Shown here in pieces: positions 2,754 to 53,735 of a stretch of 64,000 bases of DNA. This stretch comes from an uncultured Chloroflexia bacterium (GTDB lineage Bacteria; Chloroflexota; Limnocylindria; Limnocylindrales; CSP1-4). The notes below the pieces were generated by a model, which saw only the letters and a list, made by a program, of their open reading frames with translations, was not told the DNA's origin and did no database searches. The translations under genes were made by a program, and so were the position numbers. Every line of letters begins with the position of its first letter. Position 1 is the first letter of the stretch. The stretch covers positions 188,760 through 252,759 of the forward strand of contig CAWEWE010000004.1 in NCBI GenBank assembly GCA_963812745.1, in the 5' to 3' direction.

Positions 2754-4810
2754 CGTTGCCGACCGTTTCGCGCGAGCCCTGGGACGACCGTCGACTCGAG
2801 GCTGCATTCGCGATGCGCGCGTCGACCGTTCCGAGACCGCGGGAGCTCGTCGACGAGACCCTCGACCGCGTCCGGACGGCGCCGCGACCAGCACCGCCGT
2901 GGCAACGCTGGCTGCCAGCCGCCGCGGTCATCGTGCTCGCCATCGGCGTAGCTGCAGGTGGCCTCGCGCTCACAGACCAGGTTCGTGGCCGCGCGTTGTT
3001 CCGGCCCGGCCCGACGGCCGACCTGAGAACGCTCGATACCGGCGAGTTCGCCTTCGATTACCCGGCTTCATGGCTCGCGTACGACGCGTCGGCCTCATCC
3101 AGCGGAGGCTCTTCGACTGCAGTCCTCGGCACGCTGCCGGTCGAGCGTCGATGCGGCGACGAGCGCCACGTCGATATCAACTGCGTCTACCAGCAGCGGC
3201 TCGAACCAGGTCATGTCCGACTGGACGTGGGCACCGGTACCTATCGGGGTGGCACGATCCAGGACCTCCCGATCAACGACCTCCCGATCAACGAGATCGG
3301 CAGGATCACGCGCGTCGAAGTCGGGGGCATGCCGGCTCTCTTCGTCGAGTCCGATGGCTCGCCGGACTCCTACTACCGCGAGGACAAGACCCTGCACTGG
3401 GAGATCGCTCGTCCGGGGACGGACGGCTCGAGCGTCGTGGAACTCGAGGCGCGACTGACGGAGCCCGGCGTCGCCGAAGGCCTTGCACAGCTCGAAGCGC
3501 TGATCGCGAGTTTCCGGTTCACGAACGGCCCCGACCCGTCCACACCGCCGACGCCCGAGCCGACGCCGACCGAGACAGCGCCCCGCCTCGCCGACCTCCG
3601 GGTGACGACCGTCGAGGAACTGCTTGCCGCCGCCGAGTCGCCGACCCCTGAGGAGATCATCGTCCATGGCTGGCTGACTCAGACGAACGTGGTCCGTAGC
3701 TGCCCCCTGGTGCTCGACCCCCGGCATCCACTCGTCCGGTCTTGCGAACAGCTCGGGCTGACCCTGACCGATCAGCAGGTTCCGATCGATCGGGGCTTCG
3801 TCACTTGCCGGCCGAACGCACGGTGCGCATGGGTACCGCCTGCTCAGCCCATCCCGGTCATCGTGCCGCTGCTGGGCATCGACGCAAACGTTGGTGTTTC
3901 GACCCTTCCTGGCAGCTCGATCAAGGTCCTAGCCATCGGACACCTCCTCGACCACCGATGGACCACGTGTCCGGAGCGTGACCAAGCCGAATGCAAGTCG
4001 AGGTTCGTGATCGATCGGGTCATAGCAGCGGATCAGCCCATCGCCGATGACCTGCCGGATCCGTGGGCCATCCCGAGTAACCATTCACTGGACGGCGCCG
4101 GAAATTCCGTCGAGGTCCTGCGGTCGGTGCTTGGTGGGATCACTGTGGTGTCGATCGGCGTCGCAGATGCAGAGCCGTTGCGCTCGATCGAGCCGAGCGG
4201 GGAAAACATCAACAACGGTGAGGGAGCATGGGTGATCCGGGCGCTGGTGGCCGGCGACGCTCAGCCGATCGCTCGGACGTTCCTGATCGGCCATATCGGT
4301 TGGTGGACAGTGTTCGAGGTGACCGAGGAGGGTCTCGTCGACCGCAGCCCGCCTGTGGAGGGCGTGCCGACTGCCGTCCCGAGCGACGACCCACACCGGA
4401 CGTTCCCGCCGGCAGGTTCGATCGTCGTGTCCCTGGCCAAGGACGGCGGGTTCGAGCTGCCGAAGTTCCGCGCCGCGCTCGTCGATCTGAGTGGCCGCGT
4501 CACCGCGGTTCGCGCGCCGAGGCCCGATGAACCGCGCCTGATCGATCGTGTCGGACAAGGACCCGCCTTCCTGATGCCTGATCCGGCGGTGCCTGGTCGC
4601 TATCAGCTGGTGTGGACGGGCGGTATGTGCGATGGCGAGACCGTCATCACGATCGATGACGACCTCCGGACGGTCAGCGTCGAGGCGGCCCAGGTCGGCG
4701 GTTGCGATGCCATCGGCGTCGAGCGTCGCCTGGTGATCGATATCGACGGCCCTATCGATCCCGCCGCCGTGGAGGTGCGCTACACCGAGACGAGCGCAGG
4801 CGCCTCGTAA
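2750..4810 (+). CDS. Anti-sigma-factor-like membrane protein with a short cytoplasmic N-terminus, one TM helix and an extracytoplasmic domain of roughly 600 aa
   Basis: ATG at 2750 overlaps the sigma stop (ATGA), indicating translational coupling. TM segment WLPAAAVIVLAIGVAAGGLAL. A PTPEPTPTETAP linker follows. Confidence 0.6.
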   Translation: MTLPTVSREPWDDRRLEAAFAMRASTVPRPRELVDETLDRVRTAPRPAPPWQRWLPAAAVIVLAIGVAAGGLALTDQVRGRALFRPGPTADLRTLDTGEFAFDYPASWLAYDASASSSGGSSTAVLGTLPVERRCGDERHVDINCVYQQRLEPGHVRLDVGTGTYRGGTIQDLPINDLPINEIGRITRVEVGGMPALFVESDGSPDSYYREDKTLHWEIARPGTDGSSVVELEARLTEPGVAEGLAQLEALIASFRFTNGPDPSTPPTPEPTPTETAPRLADLRVTTVEELLAAAESPTPEEIIVHGWLTQTNVVRSCPLVLDPRHPLVRSCEQLGLTLTDQQVPIDRGFVTCRPNARCAWVPPAQPIPVIVPLLGIDANVGVSTLPGSSIKVLAIGHLLDHRWTTCPERDQAECKSRFVIDRVIAADQPIADDLPDPWAIPSNHSLDGAGNSVEVLRSVLGGITVVSIGVADAEPLRSIEPSGENINNGEGAWVIRALVAGDAQPIARTFLIGHIGWWTVFEVTEEGLVDRSPPVEGVPTAVPSDDPHRTFPPAGSIVVSLAKDGGFELPKFRAALVDLSGRVTAVRAPRPDEPRLIDRVGQGPAFLMPDPAVPGRYQLVWTGGMCDGETVITIDDDLRTVSVEAAQVGGCDAIGVERRLVIDIDGPIDPAAVEVRYTETSAGAS

Positions 4811-15485: not shown

Positions 15486-15890
15486 TCAGTCGAGCCAGAC
15501 CCTGTCCTGGTTCTCGGGATCGTCGATCGGTGACGAGATGAACAGGACCTGCGGCGCGTCCTCGAACTGGCCGCCGTGCGGCGTGTTGGCCGGGATCACC
15601 CAGACGTCACCGCGCTTGACCGGTCGCGTGACGCCGCCGACCGTGACCGAACCCGTGCCCTCGAGCACGTAGCCGATCTCATCGTGCGTCTCGTGGACGT
15701 GGGACCGGAACGGCCCGGCGTGGCCCTGGAACACGAACACGCTCGATTGCGACCCGTGACCGAGATACGTCCGCTTGAACACATCGGCGTCGGTCAGCTT
15801 GTCGGCCTCGACCGCGGCCGCCACGTCGACGACGTCGATCTTGGTCAGGTGGCTCAGGTCCTTGGCCGGGCGGTCGGCCTGGTCGGTCAT
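15486..15890 (-). CDS. Cupin domain protein
   Basis: Cupin metal motifs HVHETHDEIGYVLEGTG ... GDVWVIPANTPHG. A 4-nt overlap with the upstream aldolase gene suggests an operon. Confidence 0.6.
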   Translation of the reverse strand: MTDQADRPAKDLSHLTKIDVVDVAAAVEADKLTDADVFKRTYLGHGSQSSVFVFQGHAGPFRSHVHETHDEIGYVLEGTGSVTVGGVTRPVKRGDVWVIPANTPHGGQFEDAPQVLFISSPIDDPENQDRVWLD

Positions 15891-16561
15891 CGTCGATCCT
15901 CCGTGTGGCGGTCGCGCCGCGCGACCAGCGCCTCGAACAGGAAGTGGTAGACCTCGGTGTGCCGTTTCGCGTCGAGCACGTCGGCGCCCCAGATGTAGGC
16001 ACCATGGTCGCGCACCACCACGGCCTGCGCGGCGGCGAATCGCGGATCGGCCAGCGCCGCCTCGAGTTGGCTGACGAGCTCGGGCTCGCGTGGCGTATTA
16101 CGGATGACCGGCACGAGGTGCGTGTCGGTGTTCGTCACGCCGGGGATGCCCTTGAGCATCTCGAGTTCTCGGATGGCCAGGTGGTCGGCGCCGGCATCCG
16201 CCGCCAGATCGCCGGCGAGGACGGCCGCGAGCGCGTGCGAGTGCACGACGCTCCACGACCCGCGCGAACGGTGGACGAGACAGAAGATCGCATTGCATTC
16301 GCTGGGCCTCAGGTCGGGGCGATCGGGCGAGCGGACGACGCGGCCGTCAGCGGGGTCGACGGTGAAGAACTCGTCGGTCTGGACCCGTTCTTTGTGGACG
16401 CCGCTCGGTGCCAGGAGGAGCCCGCCGTCGTCGGCCGGGCCGCAGATGCCGCCGCCGGTGCCGGACACCCACGCGCGGCGGTGGAAGTCGCGCAGGAGCT
16501 CGACGAGGAGCTCGCGGGTCGCCTGCTCAGCGGTCATCGCTCGATTATCGCCGCGACCCAC
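15887..16561 (-). CDS. Class II aldolase/adducin family protein, most similar to methylthioribulose-1-phosphate dehydratase
   Basis: GTGGGICGP...LLLAPSGVHKERVQ..DEFF..D...G and HSHAL metal ligands. Confidence 0.65.
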   Translation of the reverse strand: MGRGDNRAMTAEQATRELLVELLRDFHRRAWVSGTGGGICGPADDGGLLLAPSGVHKERVQTDEFFTVDPADGRVVRSPDRPDLRPSECNAIFCLVHRSRGSWSVVHSHALAAVLAGDLAADAGADHLAIRELEMLKGIPGVTNTDTHLVPVIRNTPREPELVSQLEAALADPRFAAAQAVVVRDHGAYIWGADVLDAKRHTEVYHFLFEALVARRDRHTEDRR

Positions 16562-16598
16562 TCGCTGATTGCGGTCGACGAACGGTCCGTGCTAGGTT

Positions 16599-16621
16599 GT
16601 GACTTGCAAGTTGCAAGTCAC
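16599..16621 (+). promoter_or_regulatory. Perfect 23-bp palindrome GTGACTTGCAAG TTGCAAGTCAC (11-bp arms). It is a candidate operator between the divergent aldolase and protease genes.
   Basis: Seen in sequence. The reverse complement is identical except at the central base. It lies 17 nt upstream of the protease ATG, immediately 5' of the AGGAG SD. Confidence 0.55.
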
Positions 16622-16637
16622 AGGAGCAAGCGGTCTC

Positions 16638-17630
16638 ATGGTCTCCACGCTCGAGCGGCCTGACCCCCGCTCGGTAGCCCCGGAAGTCGATAGCGATGAC
16701 AGCGCGGTCCTCGATGCGTATTCGATGGCCGTCAGCGCGGTCGCGGAAACGCTCATCCCGTCCGTCGCGAGCTTGCGCATCACCCGGCAGGTCAACGGCT
16801 GGACCGCAGGCGGCGCAGGGTCGGCAGTCTCGTTCACCCCGGACGGGTTCCTCGTGACGAGCGCCCACGTCGTGGCAGGCGCCGATCGCGGGTCCGCGGC
16901 ATTCGTCGACGGATCGGAGCGTGACTTCCGGGTCGTCGGACGCGACACGCTCAGCGACCTGGCGATCGTCCGTTGTGACGGCGACCTCGTCGCGGCGCGG
17001 TTCGGTGACGCCGCTCGACTCAAAGTCGGACAGCTGGTGGTCGCCATCGGGAATCCGCTCGGCTTCACCGGCTCGGTGACGGCCGGTGTGGTGAGCGCAC
17101 TCGGCCGATCCCTCGCCGTCCGCGAAGGACGGAATAGCCGGATGGTCGAGAACGTGATCCAGACCGACGCGGCACTCAACCCCGGCAACTCCGGCGGAGC
17201 GTTGGCCGATTCCCGCGCCCGCGTGGTCGGCATCAATACCGCCGTCGCAGGGATCGGGCTCGGGCTCGCCGTCCCCATCGACGACCAGGCCCGCGCCATC
17301 CTCGCCGCCCTGATGCGCGAGGGACGCGTTCGGCGCGCCTACCTTGGCGTCGTCGGCGGGCCGAGGCCGCTCCCACCCCGGCTGGCGGGATCGCTCGCCC
17401 GTCAACGCGGGCTCGAGGTCGCCCAGGTCCTGGGCGGGTCGCCCGCCAGTGCGGGCGGCATCCGCGAGGGTGACCTGATCCTCGACCTTGACGCACAGCC
17501 CATCGAAAGCGTCGCGGATCTCCAGCGACGGCTCGTGGGGGACGCCATCGGACGGCGGTTGACGGTCCGCGTCGCCCGCGGCGATCGCCTCGTCGATCTC
17601 GACGTTACGCCGATCGAACTGACGGCCTAG
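16638..17630 (+). CDS. HtrA/DegP-like trypsin-family serine protease with a C-terminal PDZ domain
   Basis: Catalytic triad context: VTSAHVV (His), TLSDLAIV (Asp), GNSGGAL (Ser). PDZ-like region GLEVAQVLGGSPASAGGIREGDLILDLD. The ATG at 16638 is preceded by AGGAG. The track ORF start at 16599 falls inside the palindrome. Confidence 0.8.
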   Translation: MVSTLERPDPRSVAPEVDSDDSAVLDAYSMAVSAVAETLIPSVASLRITRQVNGWTAGGAGSAVSFTPDGFLVTSAHVVAGADRGSAAFVDGSERDFRVVGRDTLSDLAIVRCDGDLVAARFGDAARLKVGQLVVAIGNPLGFTGSVTAGVVSALGRSLAVREGRNSRMVENVIQTDAALNPGNSGGALADSRARVVGINTAVAGIGLGLAVPIDDQARAILAALMREGRVRRAYLGVVGGPRPLPPRLAGSLARQRGLEVAQVLGGSPASAGGIREGDLILDLDAQPIESVADLQRRLVGDAIGRRLTVRVARGDRLVDLDVTPIELTA

Positions 17631-25240: not shown

Positions 25241-26335
25241 GTGAGCGGCCGTCCTGACGCCTCGATCCGCAAGCTCTTCGAGCCGGCCGATGGCATGACC
25301 TACCTCGACGCGGCCACGTACGGGCTGCCGCCACGGTCGACCGTCGCGGCGATGTCGGAGGCACTGGCGGCCTGGCAACACGGCACCGCCCGCTGGATCG
25401 ACGACTGGGATCGACCCGCCCAGGCGGCCCGCGGCCTGTTCGCCGAGCTGATCGGTGCCAGCGCCGAGGAGATCGCCCTCATCCCGTCGGTCTCGATCGG
25501 CACCGGCCTCGTCGCGAACAGCCTCTCCCCGGGCGACGTCGTCCTCGTCCCCGACGACGAGCACGTGTCCGACCTCTATCCGCTGCTCGTCGCGGAGCGC
25601 CGGGGTGTGGTCGTCCGGCAGGTCCCCTTCGCCTCACTGCCGGACGCCATCAACGCGTCCGTGACCCTCGTCGTCACGAGCCTCGTCCAGATGCAGACCG
25701 GCCGCGTCGCCGACCTCGCCGGGATCACGGAGCGAGCCGCGTCCGCCGGCGCGCGGGTCTTCGTCGATTCGACGCACGGGACGCCGTTCGTCGACGTCGC
25801 CGAGCACATCGGGGCCGTCGACTATCTCGTCTGTCACGCCTACAAACACCTCCTCGGCGCCCGCGGCTGCGCGTTCCTGTATGTCCGCCGCGACCGCGTC
25901 GACGATCTCGAGCCGGTCCACGCGAACTGGCGTGGGGCGGCGGCGCCATGGACGACCTTCTTCGGTGGCCCGCTCGACCTCGCTGCCGACGCCGGCCGGT
26001 TCAATGTCTCACTGGCGTGGCTACCGTGGGTCGCCACCGTCGAATCGCTCCGGCTCATGCTGACCTGGCGCCGCGACGGGGTCCTCGCCGAGGTCGTCGC
26101 GCTCGCCGGCCGCTTCGCACGGGCGCTCGATCTCGAGCCGACGGGGTCGTCGCTCGTGTGCGTCCCGGTCGCCGATCCGGAAGCGGTCCGCGAGAGCCTC
26201 GACGCGCGGCGTATACGAGCTGCCGTCCGCGGCGAGTCGATCCGCTTCTCGGTCCATATCTGGAACGACGACGTCGATGTCGAGCGTGCCGTCGAGGCCA
26301 TCAGACCGCTGAGGGTCGAGGCGACGCAGGCCTAG
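25241..26335 (+). CDS. Class V aminotransferase (cysteine desulfurase / epimerase-like, PLP-dependent)
   Basis: PLP-lysine motif HAYKHLLGARG. N-terminal LDAATYGLPP resembles the class V signature. GTG start. Confidence 0.75.
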   Translation: MSGRPDASIRKLFEPADGMTYLDAATYGLPPRSTVAAMSEALAAWQHGTARWIDDWDRPAQAARGLFAELIGASAEEIALIPSVSIGTGLVANSLSPGDVVLVPDDEHVSDLYPLLVAERRGVVVRQVPFASLPDAINASVTLVVTSLVQMQTGRVADLAGITERAASAGARVFVDSTHGTPFVDVAEHIGAVDYLVCHAYKHLLGARGCAFLYVRRDRVDDLEPVHANWRGAAAPWTTFFGGPLDLAADAGRFNVSLAWLPWVATVESLRLMLTWRRDGVLAEVVALAGRFARALDLEPTGSSLVCVPVADPEAVRESLDARRIRAAVRGESIRFSVHIWNDDVDVERAVEAIRPLRVEATQA

Positions 26336-26345
26336 CCGCCACGGA

Positions 26346-26377
26346 AACGGGCCCGACTCTTCCGAGTCGGGCCCGTT
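26346..26377. terminator. Bidirectional intrinsic-terminator-like hairpin between convergent genes
   Basis: AACGGGCCCGACTC-TTCC-GAGTCGGGCCCGTT, a perfect 14-bp stem with a 4-nt loop. Confidence 0.6.
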
Positions 26378-26420: not shown

Positions 26421-27110
26421 CTAGGCGGGCATCGGCTGCGGGGCAGCCACCCTCTTCGGTGCCTTCTCCTCGGCTGCTCGCGTCGCCCACACCAGCCCGA
26501 GTCCGGCGATGAGGACCGTGAACCCGATCCCTGCGAAGAGCCCGGCGAGGCCGAGGCCCATCTGCAGGGTCGACGCCGTCACGGTGCCGACACCAAGGTT
26601 GGCGATCAGGGCGTGTGCCGTGCCCGTCCAGGCCTTGTCGCGCGCCGGCCCCTCGATGGGATGCTGGCGGTCGAAGTCGGTCCAGTAGCGGCCGTCGACG
26701 GCGAACTCGTACTCACCGGCGGGGAAGATCTCGCCGTTGTACTCCGTCTGCTCGTCAAGGACGATCGTCTGGGTTCCGTGCAAGGTGTGATAGGCGACCG
26801 TCGCCATCTGGTACATGTACTCGGTCGGGGTGTTGACCAGCGGATCGTTCGGGTTCAAGTCACCCTCCACGACCGGATACCCCCACTCCTCGCGCAGCAG
26901 CGCCAGGATCGACTGCGCGCCCTCGGGCTCGCCGCGATCGACGAGCACGCCCTGCTCGTTGTAGCTGAGCTGGATGTCCTGCGCGGCGCTGAACGCCTGC
27001 AGCGACCGGACACCCTCCTGGGTCCGGATGAACGCGTAGGCGCCGCCGGCCATGAAGACCAGGCCGAGGACCGCCAGGATGAGGCCGAGGCCTCGCAATC
27101 GTCCGATCAT
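26421..27110 (-). CDS. Hypothetical bitopic membrane protein with N- and C-terminal TM helices flanking an extracytoplasmic domain of roughly 170 aa
   Basis: Likely start MIGRLRGLGLILAVLGLVFMAGGAYAF at 27110, with GGAAAGGGA SD. C-terminal TM GLGLAGLFAGIGFTVLIAGLGLVWA. The upstream part of the track ORF lies in low-GC non-coding sequence. Confidence 0.5.
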   Translation of the reverse strand: MIGRLRGLGLILAVLGLVFMAGGAYAFIRTQEGVRSLQAFSAAQDIQLSYNEQGVLVDRGEPEGAQSILALLREEWGYPVVEGDLNPNDPLVNTPTEYMYQMATVAYHTLHGTQTIVLDEQTEYNGEIFPAGEYEFAVDGRYWTDFDRQHPIEGPARDKAWTGTAHALIANLGVGTVTASTLQMGLGLAGLFAGIGFTVLIAGLGLVWATRAAEEKAPKRVAAPQPMPA

Positions 27111-27273
27111 CGAAGTATCCCTTTCCACTTTGTTCCTTGTCGTTGACCTGACATGACTTTGGCGGTCCTGATGGCCTCCGCCTGTTGCCGAACGGACCCA
27201 TTCGCAAGCCCGATGGCCCGGGTCCCTGGGGTCCATTCGTCACATGACCCACGGGACCTAGCCCGACTCCGCA

Positions 27274-53243: not shown

Positions 53244-53735
53244 ATGGGTCGGATCGCGATGCGGCGGGCCATCGCCGCGCTACCGGCCGTCGTGCTCGTC
53301 ATGTCTGCCTGCACGTCGGCCCCATCGAGTACGGCCGTCGCGAGTGCCCCGCCGTCCGCAGCGGGCGGGGCTGGCACGATCGCGGTGACCCTCCAGGAGT
53401 GGGCCGTCGTCCCAGCATCGACATCGACGGCGGCCGGGGACGTGAGCTTCCAGATCACGAACACCGGTCCGGAGGACGTCCACGAGTTCGTGGTGCTCAA
53501 GACCGACCTTGATCCCGGCGCGCTGCCGACCGATGCGAACGGTGCCGTGACCGAGTCCGGTGAAGGGATCGAAGTGATCGGCGAGGTCGAGGACGTCCCG
53601 GTCGGGGAGACGAAGGAGCTGTCGGTGACGCTTGCCGCAGGCAAGTACGTGCTGCTCTGCAACATCTACGACGAGACGGAGAAGGAAGCCCATTACAAGC
53701 TGGGGATGCGAACTCCGTTCGACGTGACTGGCTAG
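53244..53735 (+). CDS. Cupredoxin-like (type-1 copper) lipoprotein
   Basis: Lipobox LVMSAC. Candidate T1Cu ligands are His in EDVHEFVV and the C/H/M triplet in LLCNIYDETEKEAHYKLGM. Confidence 0.5.
   Translation: MGRIAMRRAIAALPAVVLVMSACTSAPSSTAVASAPPSAAGGAGTIAVTLQEWAVVPASTSTAAGDVSFQITNTGPEDVHEFVVLKTDLDPGALPTDANGAVTESGEGIEVIGEVEDVPVGETKELSVTLAAGKYVLLCNIYDETEKEAHYKLGMRTPFDVTG

Follow-up and report, generated by a model that had tools for sequence, protein, structure and literature searches.

YodB/CatR and QorR are dimeric winged-helix quinone/diamide repressors that bind short inverted repeats over the promoters of small regulons, often that of a divergent gene. Arrays of WATCACW heptads are bound by the omega ribbon-helix-helix repressor of inc18 plasmids. 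HypR (YybR) of Bacillus subtilis recognizes a DNase-I-footprinted box, GTATCAA-AA-TTGATAC, a 16-bp inverted repeat of 7-2-7 geometry present at its target promoter and its own (PMC3351151). The site through which HypR activates hypO lies at -53 to -95, and both HxlR and HypR are activators that act from upstream sites (PMC3351151).

Here we analyse a palindrome found ahead of an HtrA-like protease gene in a 64-kb stretch of DNA, referred to below as the window. We propose, with a probability of roughly 0.65, that the palindrome is the operator of the protease promoter, lying over the transcription start and bound by an HxlR/DUF24 repressor dimer encoded outside the window. The initial annotation of this DNA had read the palindrome as a dimeric-repressor operator controlling the protease, and that reading is supported both by the 12 hxlR-linked loci of relatives that carry the motif and by conservation of the palindrome itself. 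Most likely the site is an HxlR operator of a kind already known, in which only the absence of the regulator gene from the window is unusual.

The palindrome and the predicted protease promoter

Two genes flank the site, a minus-strand class II aldolase gene and the plus-strand protease gene, and the gap that separates them is 100 bp long. Its earlier placement, between divergent genes and at the protease ribosome-binding site, is therefore correct. The features of the region are as follows.

15887-16537, minus strand: class II aldolase gene, followed by a cupin gene and then a PAS-GGDEF gene
16569-16574, plus strand: predicted -35 element of the protease promoter, TTGCGG, assigned from a conserved pattern
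16593-16598, plus strand: predicted -10 element, TAGGTT, a fit to TAnnnT with TGC in front; the palindrome begins on its final T
16598-16622, no strand: proposed operator TGTGACTTGCAAGTTGCAAGTCACA, from symmetry, shuffles and conservation
16622-16626, plus strand: Shine-Dalgarno-like AGGAG, 11 nt ahead of the ATG, read from the sequence
16638-17630, plus strand: protease gene, 330 aa, with Trypsin_2 and one PDZ domain, S1C (HtrA-like) family

Read directly, positions 16599-16621 are GTGACTTGCAAGTTGCAAGTCAC, matching the earlier record of a 23-bp palindrome with 11-bp arms letter for letter. The real symmetry is 1 bp longer on each side: T16598 and A16622 form an additional symmetric pair, giving a 25-bp palindrome, TGTGACTTGCAAGTTGCAAGTCACA, with 12-bp arms centred on G16610. 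The TTGCAAG direct repeat that had been reported within it is also present, in tandem, at 16604-16610 and 16611-16617. The palindrome has a G+C content of 44%, as compared with about 70% for the window.

Among perfect inverted repeats in the 64-kb window, the palindrome ranks second by length. The longest is a terminator-like hairpin at 26346-26377, AACGGGCCCGACTC-TTCC-GAGTCGGGCCCGTT, which has perfect 14-bp arms and lies between convergent genes at 25241-26335 (plus strand) and 26421-27236 (minus strand); it resembles a bidirectional terminator, with a clear T-run absent.

Palindromes of this length had been described as rare by chance. They are indeed rare, though only modestly so: when the window was shuffled 200 times with dinucleotides preserved, perfect arms of at least 12 bp with a loop of at most 3 occurred in 5.5% of the shuffled windows, and arms of at least 11 bp in 24.5%. 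Since perfect palindromes as long as this one turn up in 5.5% of shuffled windows, length by itself is a weak argument against chance. The same figure, together with a heptad copy number that differs between relatives (see below), is what favours regarding the palindrome as a chance event, or as the functionless by-product of slippage through a 7-bp tandem duplication of TTGCAAG. We return to this explanation with the conservation data.

The open reading frame list starts the protease at GTG 16599, within the palindrome. This N-terminal extension is not kept in frame in the related locus L037, where a 1-bp deletion lies between the palindrome and the ATG, and the nearest protease homologs are 330 aa long; on both grounds, the palindrome is non-coding. 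The protease itself scores under every equivalog cut-off of the S1C/HtrA family. It is probably cytoplasmic, because it is without an N-terminal hydrophobic segment. An exact-sequence look-up of the protein returned no record, and its few named homologs are labelled as Chloroflexi or Chloroflexota MAGs.

Two further features of the neighbourhood were observed. Ahead of the aldolase gene, a GATAAT hexamer stands exactly 6 nt from the ATG (plus-strand ATTATC, 16544-16549), and the retention of this hexamer in L005 and L037 suggests that the aldolase mRNA may be leaderless. Genes for an ECF sigma factor and a zf-HC2 anti-sigma factor lie about 5-7 kb upstream of the protease (L001 3190-4685, roughly 9.8-11.3 kb in the window).

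We assigned the protease promoter solely from pattern conservation across 18 loci, and this putative promoter is a weak match to consensus; a strict E. coli-type sigma-70 consensus scan passed no promoter at the site. The spacer between TTGCGG and TAGGTT is 18 bp in the window, and a TTGnnn hexamer occurs 17-18 bp upstream of TAnnnT at the equivalent place in 18/18 related promoters inspected. The TAGGTT hexamer recurs in L006, L039 and L049, again 17-18 bp from a TTGnnn hexamer, and across the four relatives that share the regulator-less arrangement the -10 element is unchanged bar one base (TACGTT in L038). With the -10 element at 16593-16598, transcription is predicted to start near 16605, inside the left arm.

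This predicted start bears on whether the palindrome might instead act as RNA, that is, as a stable hairpin transcribed at the 5' end of the mRNA that controls translation or mRNA stability from beside the ribosome-binding site. If transcribed whole, the hairpin dominates the fold of 16590-16650 (-22.1 kcal/mol, z = -2.25), and it ends on the first base of AGGAG. However, an RNA that begins at 16605 contains only part of the left arm and folds no better than shuffles (z = +1.23), and in relatives with a TAACTT -10 element the invariant core would be untranscribed. The Shine-Dalgarno sequence also falls outside the stem: its first A, A16622, is shared with the palindrome and is the only base of it that pairs, the rest of AGGAG lying beyond, and 16 nt separate the stem from the ATG downstream. 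Covariation is absent among 16 sites, with 67.0% of cells pairing as against 66.2% in column shuffles (130/500 as high); both-sided change occurs in only 2/11 pairs, which is the chance level; the substitutions in L005 and L038 are uncompensated; and an Rfam search was without a match. We consider an RNA element very unlikely.

Heptad architecture and the hxlR-linked loci of relatives

The window protease is the ortholog of the second protease in an hxlR-linked pair. In 12 independent relatives, all uncultured and labelled Chloroflexota, the orthologous gene (57-81% identical to the window protease) stands second in an operon of two protease genes that is divergent from an HxlR/DUF24-family gene (canonical loci L002/3, L004, L006, L011, L017, L019, L020, L029, L039/40, L045, L046/47, L048, L049 and L051). 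The first gene of the operon encodes a 298-aa protease (protease-1) and the second encodes the window ortholog (protease-2). The contig of P0184 is another canonical locus. The divergent regulator is 135-160 aa long, belongs to Pfam HxlR (PF01638), and is the only regulator gene beside the site in every canonical locus, as judged from Pfam-annotated neighbours; among these neighbours, no conserved small gene accompanies the site.

Where these 12 loci have hxlR, the window has the class II aldolase gene as its divergent neighbour. In agreement with the initial annotation, which saw no regulator gene adjacent to the palindrome, there is no HxlR-type gene in the 64-kb window: none was found by tblastn with two HxlR proteins, nor with an HxlR HMM built from 14 sequences and run against the six-frame ORFs (best E 0.77). 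No HxlR homologs were found either on the 282,111-bp contig of L001, whose locus is 99% identical.

Several observations were made on individual relatives. In L051 (2012-2997), two separate ORFs of 145 and 195 aa make up the protease-2 ortholog, reflecting either a long-read assembly frameshift error or a pseudogene. The cupin gene beside protease-2 in L048 was considered as an ortholog of the window's cupin gene and rejected (E 0.65). More distant orthologs, at 59-65% identity (L008, L010, L012-L014, L027, L028 and L032), are without hxlR and protease-1 and have a TPR plus AAA-ATPase gene as their divergent neighbour. A motif common to them, CTGGCATCATTGCAA/CATTACAA, is conserved about 100-130 nt upstream of the protease match; a sigma-54 reading of CTGGCATCATTGCAA was rejected, since its TGGCA-TTGCA gap is 2 nt and 5 are needed.

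The intergenic layout is the same in every hxlR/protease-1 locus: TTGnnn, a 17-18-bp spacer, TAnnnT (TAACTT, TAGGTT, TAGATT or TAAGTT), and then the site, which has the form GTAACTT-GC-AAGTCRC-AAGTCAC and overlaps TAnnnT or directly follows it. The building block is a 7-bp unit, GYRACTT, arranged as one forward copy, GC, and one to five reverse copies (AAGTYRC); in L051, L039 and L049 the order is instead two forward copies, GC and one reverse. Relatives thus usually carry a 7-2-7 repeat plus one extra adjoining unit, with 2 to 6 heptads per promoter. The window reads GTGACTT-GC-AAGTTGC-AAGTCAC, or F-GC-R-R, and its parts are as follows.

16599-16605, plus strand: heptad F, GTGACTT, which fits GYRACTT and has an equivalent in all 18 related sites
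16608-16614, minus strand: heptad R1, plus-strand AAGTTGC, minus-strand GCAACTT
16615-16621, minus strand: heptad R2, plus-strand AAGTCAC, minus-strand GTGACTT
16599-16614: 7-2-7 unit 1, GTGACTT-GC-AAGTTGC, 13/16 against the family consensus GTAACTTGCAAGTCAC
16606-16621: 7-2-7 unit 2, GCAAGTT-GC-AAGTCAC, 14/16 against the family consensus GTAACTTGCAAGTCAC

The two overlapping units, offset by 7 bp, each provide a 7-2-7 inverted repeat of about 16 bp with half-sites about one helical turn apart, and their scores compare with 12-16/16 for hxlR-adjacent sites against the same consensus. The likeness extends to the sequence as a whole: the window and GTAACTTGCAAGTCGCAAGTCAC, the site beside hxlR in L046, differ at 2/23 positions, and GTAACTTGCAACTTGCAAGTCTA of L051 matches the window minus strand at 20/23. 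A second R heptad is also found in L046, L048, L019, L020 and L011/L029, and the window's TTGCAAGTCAC lies within the motif of 12 independent loci, at the equivalent promoter. In an alignment of 16 distinct 23-mers, columns 1, 7-11 and 18 are invariant and columns 6, 13 and 16 nearly so. By this comparison, the window site reads as an ordinary three-heptad member of the family, and its perfect 23-25-bp symmetry is incidental, a by-product of R1 being AAGTTGC.

The perfect outer half-sites of the palindrome are 18 bp apart centre to centre, versus 11 bp in a single 7-2-7 repeat, so that a single dimer cannot engage the two together. What functions here is probably a 7-2-7 repeat with an extra heptad beside it, the arrangement of the relatives; either 7-2-7 register could be occupied, or two dimers could bind at once. 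The three heptads span about -6 to +17 of the predicted window promoter. Relatives whose -10 element is TAACTT have the entire site shifted upstream by one heptad, where it covers the -10 element itself.

The same architecture invites a different binder, for example a small ribbon-helix-helix repressor of contiguous 7-bp arrays, with hxlR a mere neighbour. The contiguous heptads, numbering 2 to 6 across relatives (five R in L020, two in L019), would suit such a protein, and the omega heptad WATCACW resembles AAGTCAC/AAATCAC. Conservation is moreover highest at the central TTGCAA, an unusual pattern if a winged-helix dimer reads the outer half-sites. On the other hand, hxlR is the sole consistent regulator neighbour in 12/12 independent canonical loci, where no small gene is conserved among the Pfam-annotated neighbours, and the inverted heptads are not contiguous but stand 2 bp apart, as in the 7-2-7 box of HypR. 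A binder of another family is therefore quite unlikely, and an HxlR/DUF24 dimer is the binder that we favour.

The motif is kept as sequence, without compensatory change, and is specific to these promoters. Across about 300 kb of fetched DNA, clusters of at least 2 exact GYRACTT within 25 bp occur only at protease promoters, and the sole such cluster in the 64-kb window is that at 16599-16621. A search for further copies of the half-site, proposed in the initial annotation, had a divided outcome: the half-site recurs at the promoters of relatives, while the window holds no second copy, its 8 matches to TTGCAAGTCAC with at most 2 mismatches (5.7 expected) including none that is convincing outside the palindrome. 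When the promoter/operator 19-mer TASGTTGYGMCTTGCAAGT was compared with 185,579 species genomes, 4 matches were returned (Armatimonadetes, a cyanobacterium, Paludibacter and Streptomyces), none beside a protease or HxlR gene, and the source genome was unmatched. In the literature, no relevant match was found for the motif or for HxlR-controlled HtrA proteases.

Two side observations concern heptads and related sequences elsewhere. In L044 (Streptomyces andamanensis NZ_JBHSDP010000010.1), a gene for a GntR/UTRA-type regulator (3265-4017, minus strand) is closely preceded, at 4064-4082, by TAGGTTGTGACTTGCAAGTCGAGG, which holds the 12-bp palindrome GACTTGCAAGTC; this sequence is probably an unrelated operator. 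Five AAGTCAC heptads are present in L020 (1564-1606) versus two in its close relative L019 (1547-1569), the kind of difference that replication slippage inside the operator should produce. As the origin of the window site we considered, and dropped, a recent 7-bp duplication in an 18-bp operator resembling TGCGACTTGCAAGTCACA of L006: the three-heptad layout is widespread beside hxlR (L046, L048, L020, L019, L051, L039 and L049) and, being common there, is old.

Conservation where the regulator gene is not adjacent

In the window and in L001 (99%), L005 (95%), L037 (94%) and L038 (84%), hxlR and protease-1 are absent upstream. The upstream gene is the aldolase in the window, L005 and L037; in L038 it is a PEP-utilising enzyme in the same orientation. 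Because L038 has this different upstream gene, the promoter, operator and protease-2 have moved as one unit. Invariant positions among the four distinct sequences of this group (window, L005, L037 and L038) are distributed as follows.

16587-16621, -10 element plus palindrome block: 32/35
16599-16621, palindrome: 21/23
16622-16637, 5' UTR: 2/16
16538-16586, upstream spacer: 18/52

The window and L038 are identical at 22/23 palindrome bases and at only 58% of third codon positions; among the regulator-less lineages, third codon positions are 58-85% identical. The substitutions seen in close relatives are an A to C in L005 and a C to T, giving G-U, in L038. The palindrome is thus far better kept than its flanks and than third codon positions, which argues that the site is still in use and that a regulator encoded elsewhere may still act on it.

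Far from being unique and non-conserved in related genomes, which the initial annotation had named as the outcome that would count against an operator, the palindrome is invariant at 21/23 positions and its motif recurs in 12 loci. The same data bear on the chance or slippage explanation. A functionless palindrome would not be expected to be conserved far beyond its flanks, nor would its motif be expected to recur, across about 300 kb, solely at orthologous promoters in distant relatives. That explanation appears close to refuted by conservation, and we regard it as extremely improbable.

Conservation also weighs on the possibility that the site is a relic, an operator that travelled with the protease after which the regulator was lost or became inactive here, leaving a sequence that now serves only as promoter and initial transcribed region. 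The regulator gene is indeed absent from the window, the regulator-less arrangement is found in two upstream contexts (aldolase and PEP-utilising enzyme), and the outer half-sites have a non-canonical 18-bp spacing. Yet 21/23 palindrome positions are invariant in lineages whose third codon positions are only 58-85% identical, and the adjoining 5' UTR has almost fully diverged, as an unused operator should likewise have done. We consider a relic unlikely, and an operator in current use remains our preferred reading.

Proposed mechanism and comparison with known systems

The nearest solved relatives of the linked regulator are DUF24/HxlR winged-helix proteins: EF0647, HypR/YybR, YtcD, HxlR and YodB. 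It matches the HypR structure 4a5n with an E of 1.8e-16, and YodB (5hs7) is among its PDB matches. In an alignment of the subfamily (A3; L004 3484-3924, L040 2587-3015 and 12 other loci), Thr or Ser replaces the N-terminal sensing cysteine of DUF24 proteins, and the C-terminal tail is invariant for His-x2-Cys ... Cys-Pro-Thr-Cys (H111, C114, C124 and C127 in P0129). AlphaFold predicts the winged-helix core with confidence and the Cys-rich tail as short strands (pLDDT 55-62); in this low-confidence part of the model, the His/Cys3 tail resembles a zinc ribbon. Since the sensing cysteine is absent and the His/Cys3 tail is invariant, our guess is that the signal could be a zinc or thiol switch.

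We propose the following mechanism. The three contiguous 7-bp units, F-GC-R-R, would be bound as DNA, offering two overlapping 7-2-7 repeats on which an HxlR/DUF24 winged-helix dimer, encoded outside the window, could dock. Once docked at about -6 to +17, the regulator would exclude RNA polymerase, and the protease would stay repressed until a signal releases the regulator. Because the site overlaps the RNA polymerase footprint in either of the positions it takes among relatives, we infer that repression is the likelier mode. The proposal thus takes the binder to be of the HxlR/DUF24 family, its action to be repression over activation, the start site to be near 16605 and the regulator gene to persist in the genome. 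Several observations count against it: the window has neither an HxlR gene nor a second copy of the site, the outer half-sites are 18 bp apart, the best-kept bases are central, the promoter matches consensus weakly, and HxlR and HypR are activators.

Modestly new, if this is correct, would be the layout of three heptads and two registers, a number of heptads that varies, a regulator subfamily not yet characterised and, as targets, a pair of cytoplasmic HtrA-like proteases. A bolder version, which we put forward tentatively and hold to be doubtful as a whole, is that the operator is a slippage-variable array of 2 to 6 GYRACTT heptads with registers 7 bp apart, read in trans by an undescribed HxlR subfamily with a zinc-ribbon-like His/Cys3 tail in place of the N-terminal sensing cysteine, which would co-regulate the relocated protease with its partner at the hxlR locus.

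To our knowledge, almost nothing is known of transcriptional regulation in the uncultured soil bacteria labelled Chloroflexota. If the main reading is correct, a cis-element, a likely regulator family and a target would be assigned to a locus of these bacteria, and the locus would be a clean case of selection continuing on an operator whose gene has been separated from the regulator. For regulon prediction in these genomes, the motif GTRACTT-GC-AAGTYRC, give or take one heptad, is ready for use, and the result draws attention to an HxlR subfamily with a sensing module that is probably new. General principles of gene regulation are unchanged.

Of the known systems that the site calls to mind, RNA thermometers and other Shine-Dalgarno-sequestering hairpins share with it a possible stable stem-loop beside the ribosome-binding site; they differ in that the Shine-Dalgarno sequence here is outside the stem, covariation and an Rfam match are absent, and the predicted start is within the stem. 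The CIRCE/HrcA and HAIR/HspR systems of heat-shock repressors are alike in having palindromic operators before chaperone or protease genes, a class in line with the stress-responsive regulator that the initial annotation gave as an example. As candidates for this site, both were rejected: CIRCE has 0 matches in the window with up to 3 mismatches, and HAIR has 1, at 53481, which is the chance rate, with none at or near 16598-16622.

The arrays of omega also consist of contiguous 7-bp units, direct and inverted and in variable number, in addition to the heptad resemblance noted above. Here, however, inverted units are split by GC and only direct ones are contiguous, and the regulator beside the site is winged-helix, with no ribbon-helix-helix gene among the Pfam-annotated neighbours; the likeness is one of resemblance only. 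Among winged-helix repressors, the YodB box, about TACT-N7-AGTA, appears unlike the window site in sequence. The targets of YodB/CatR and QorR are reductases and dioxygenases, whereas the target here is a protease, and their sensing cysteine is absent in the linked subfamily.

The closest parallel is with HypR. The two differ in several respects: the HypR box matches the consensus GTAACTTGCAAGTCAC at 7/16 bases, it is an upstream activator site whereas the window site lies over the -10 element and the start, HypR senses via Cys14 where the subfamily in relatives has Thr or Ser, and the window site has an extra adjoining heptad. In common, HypR belongs to the same Pfam family as the motif-linked regulator of the relatives, its box begins with GTA and ends with AC as does the consensus, and the 7-2-7 geometry of that box is the geometry of F-GC-R.
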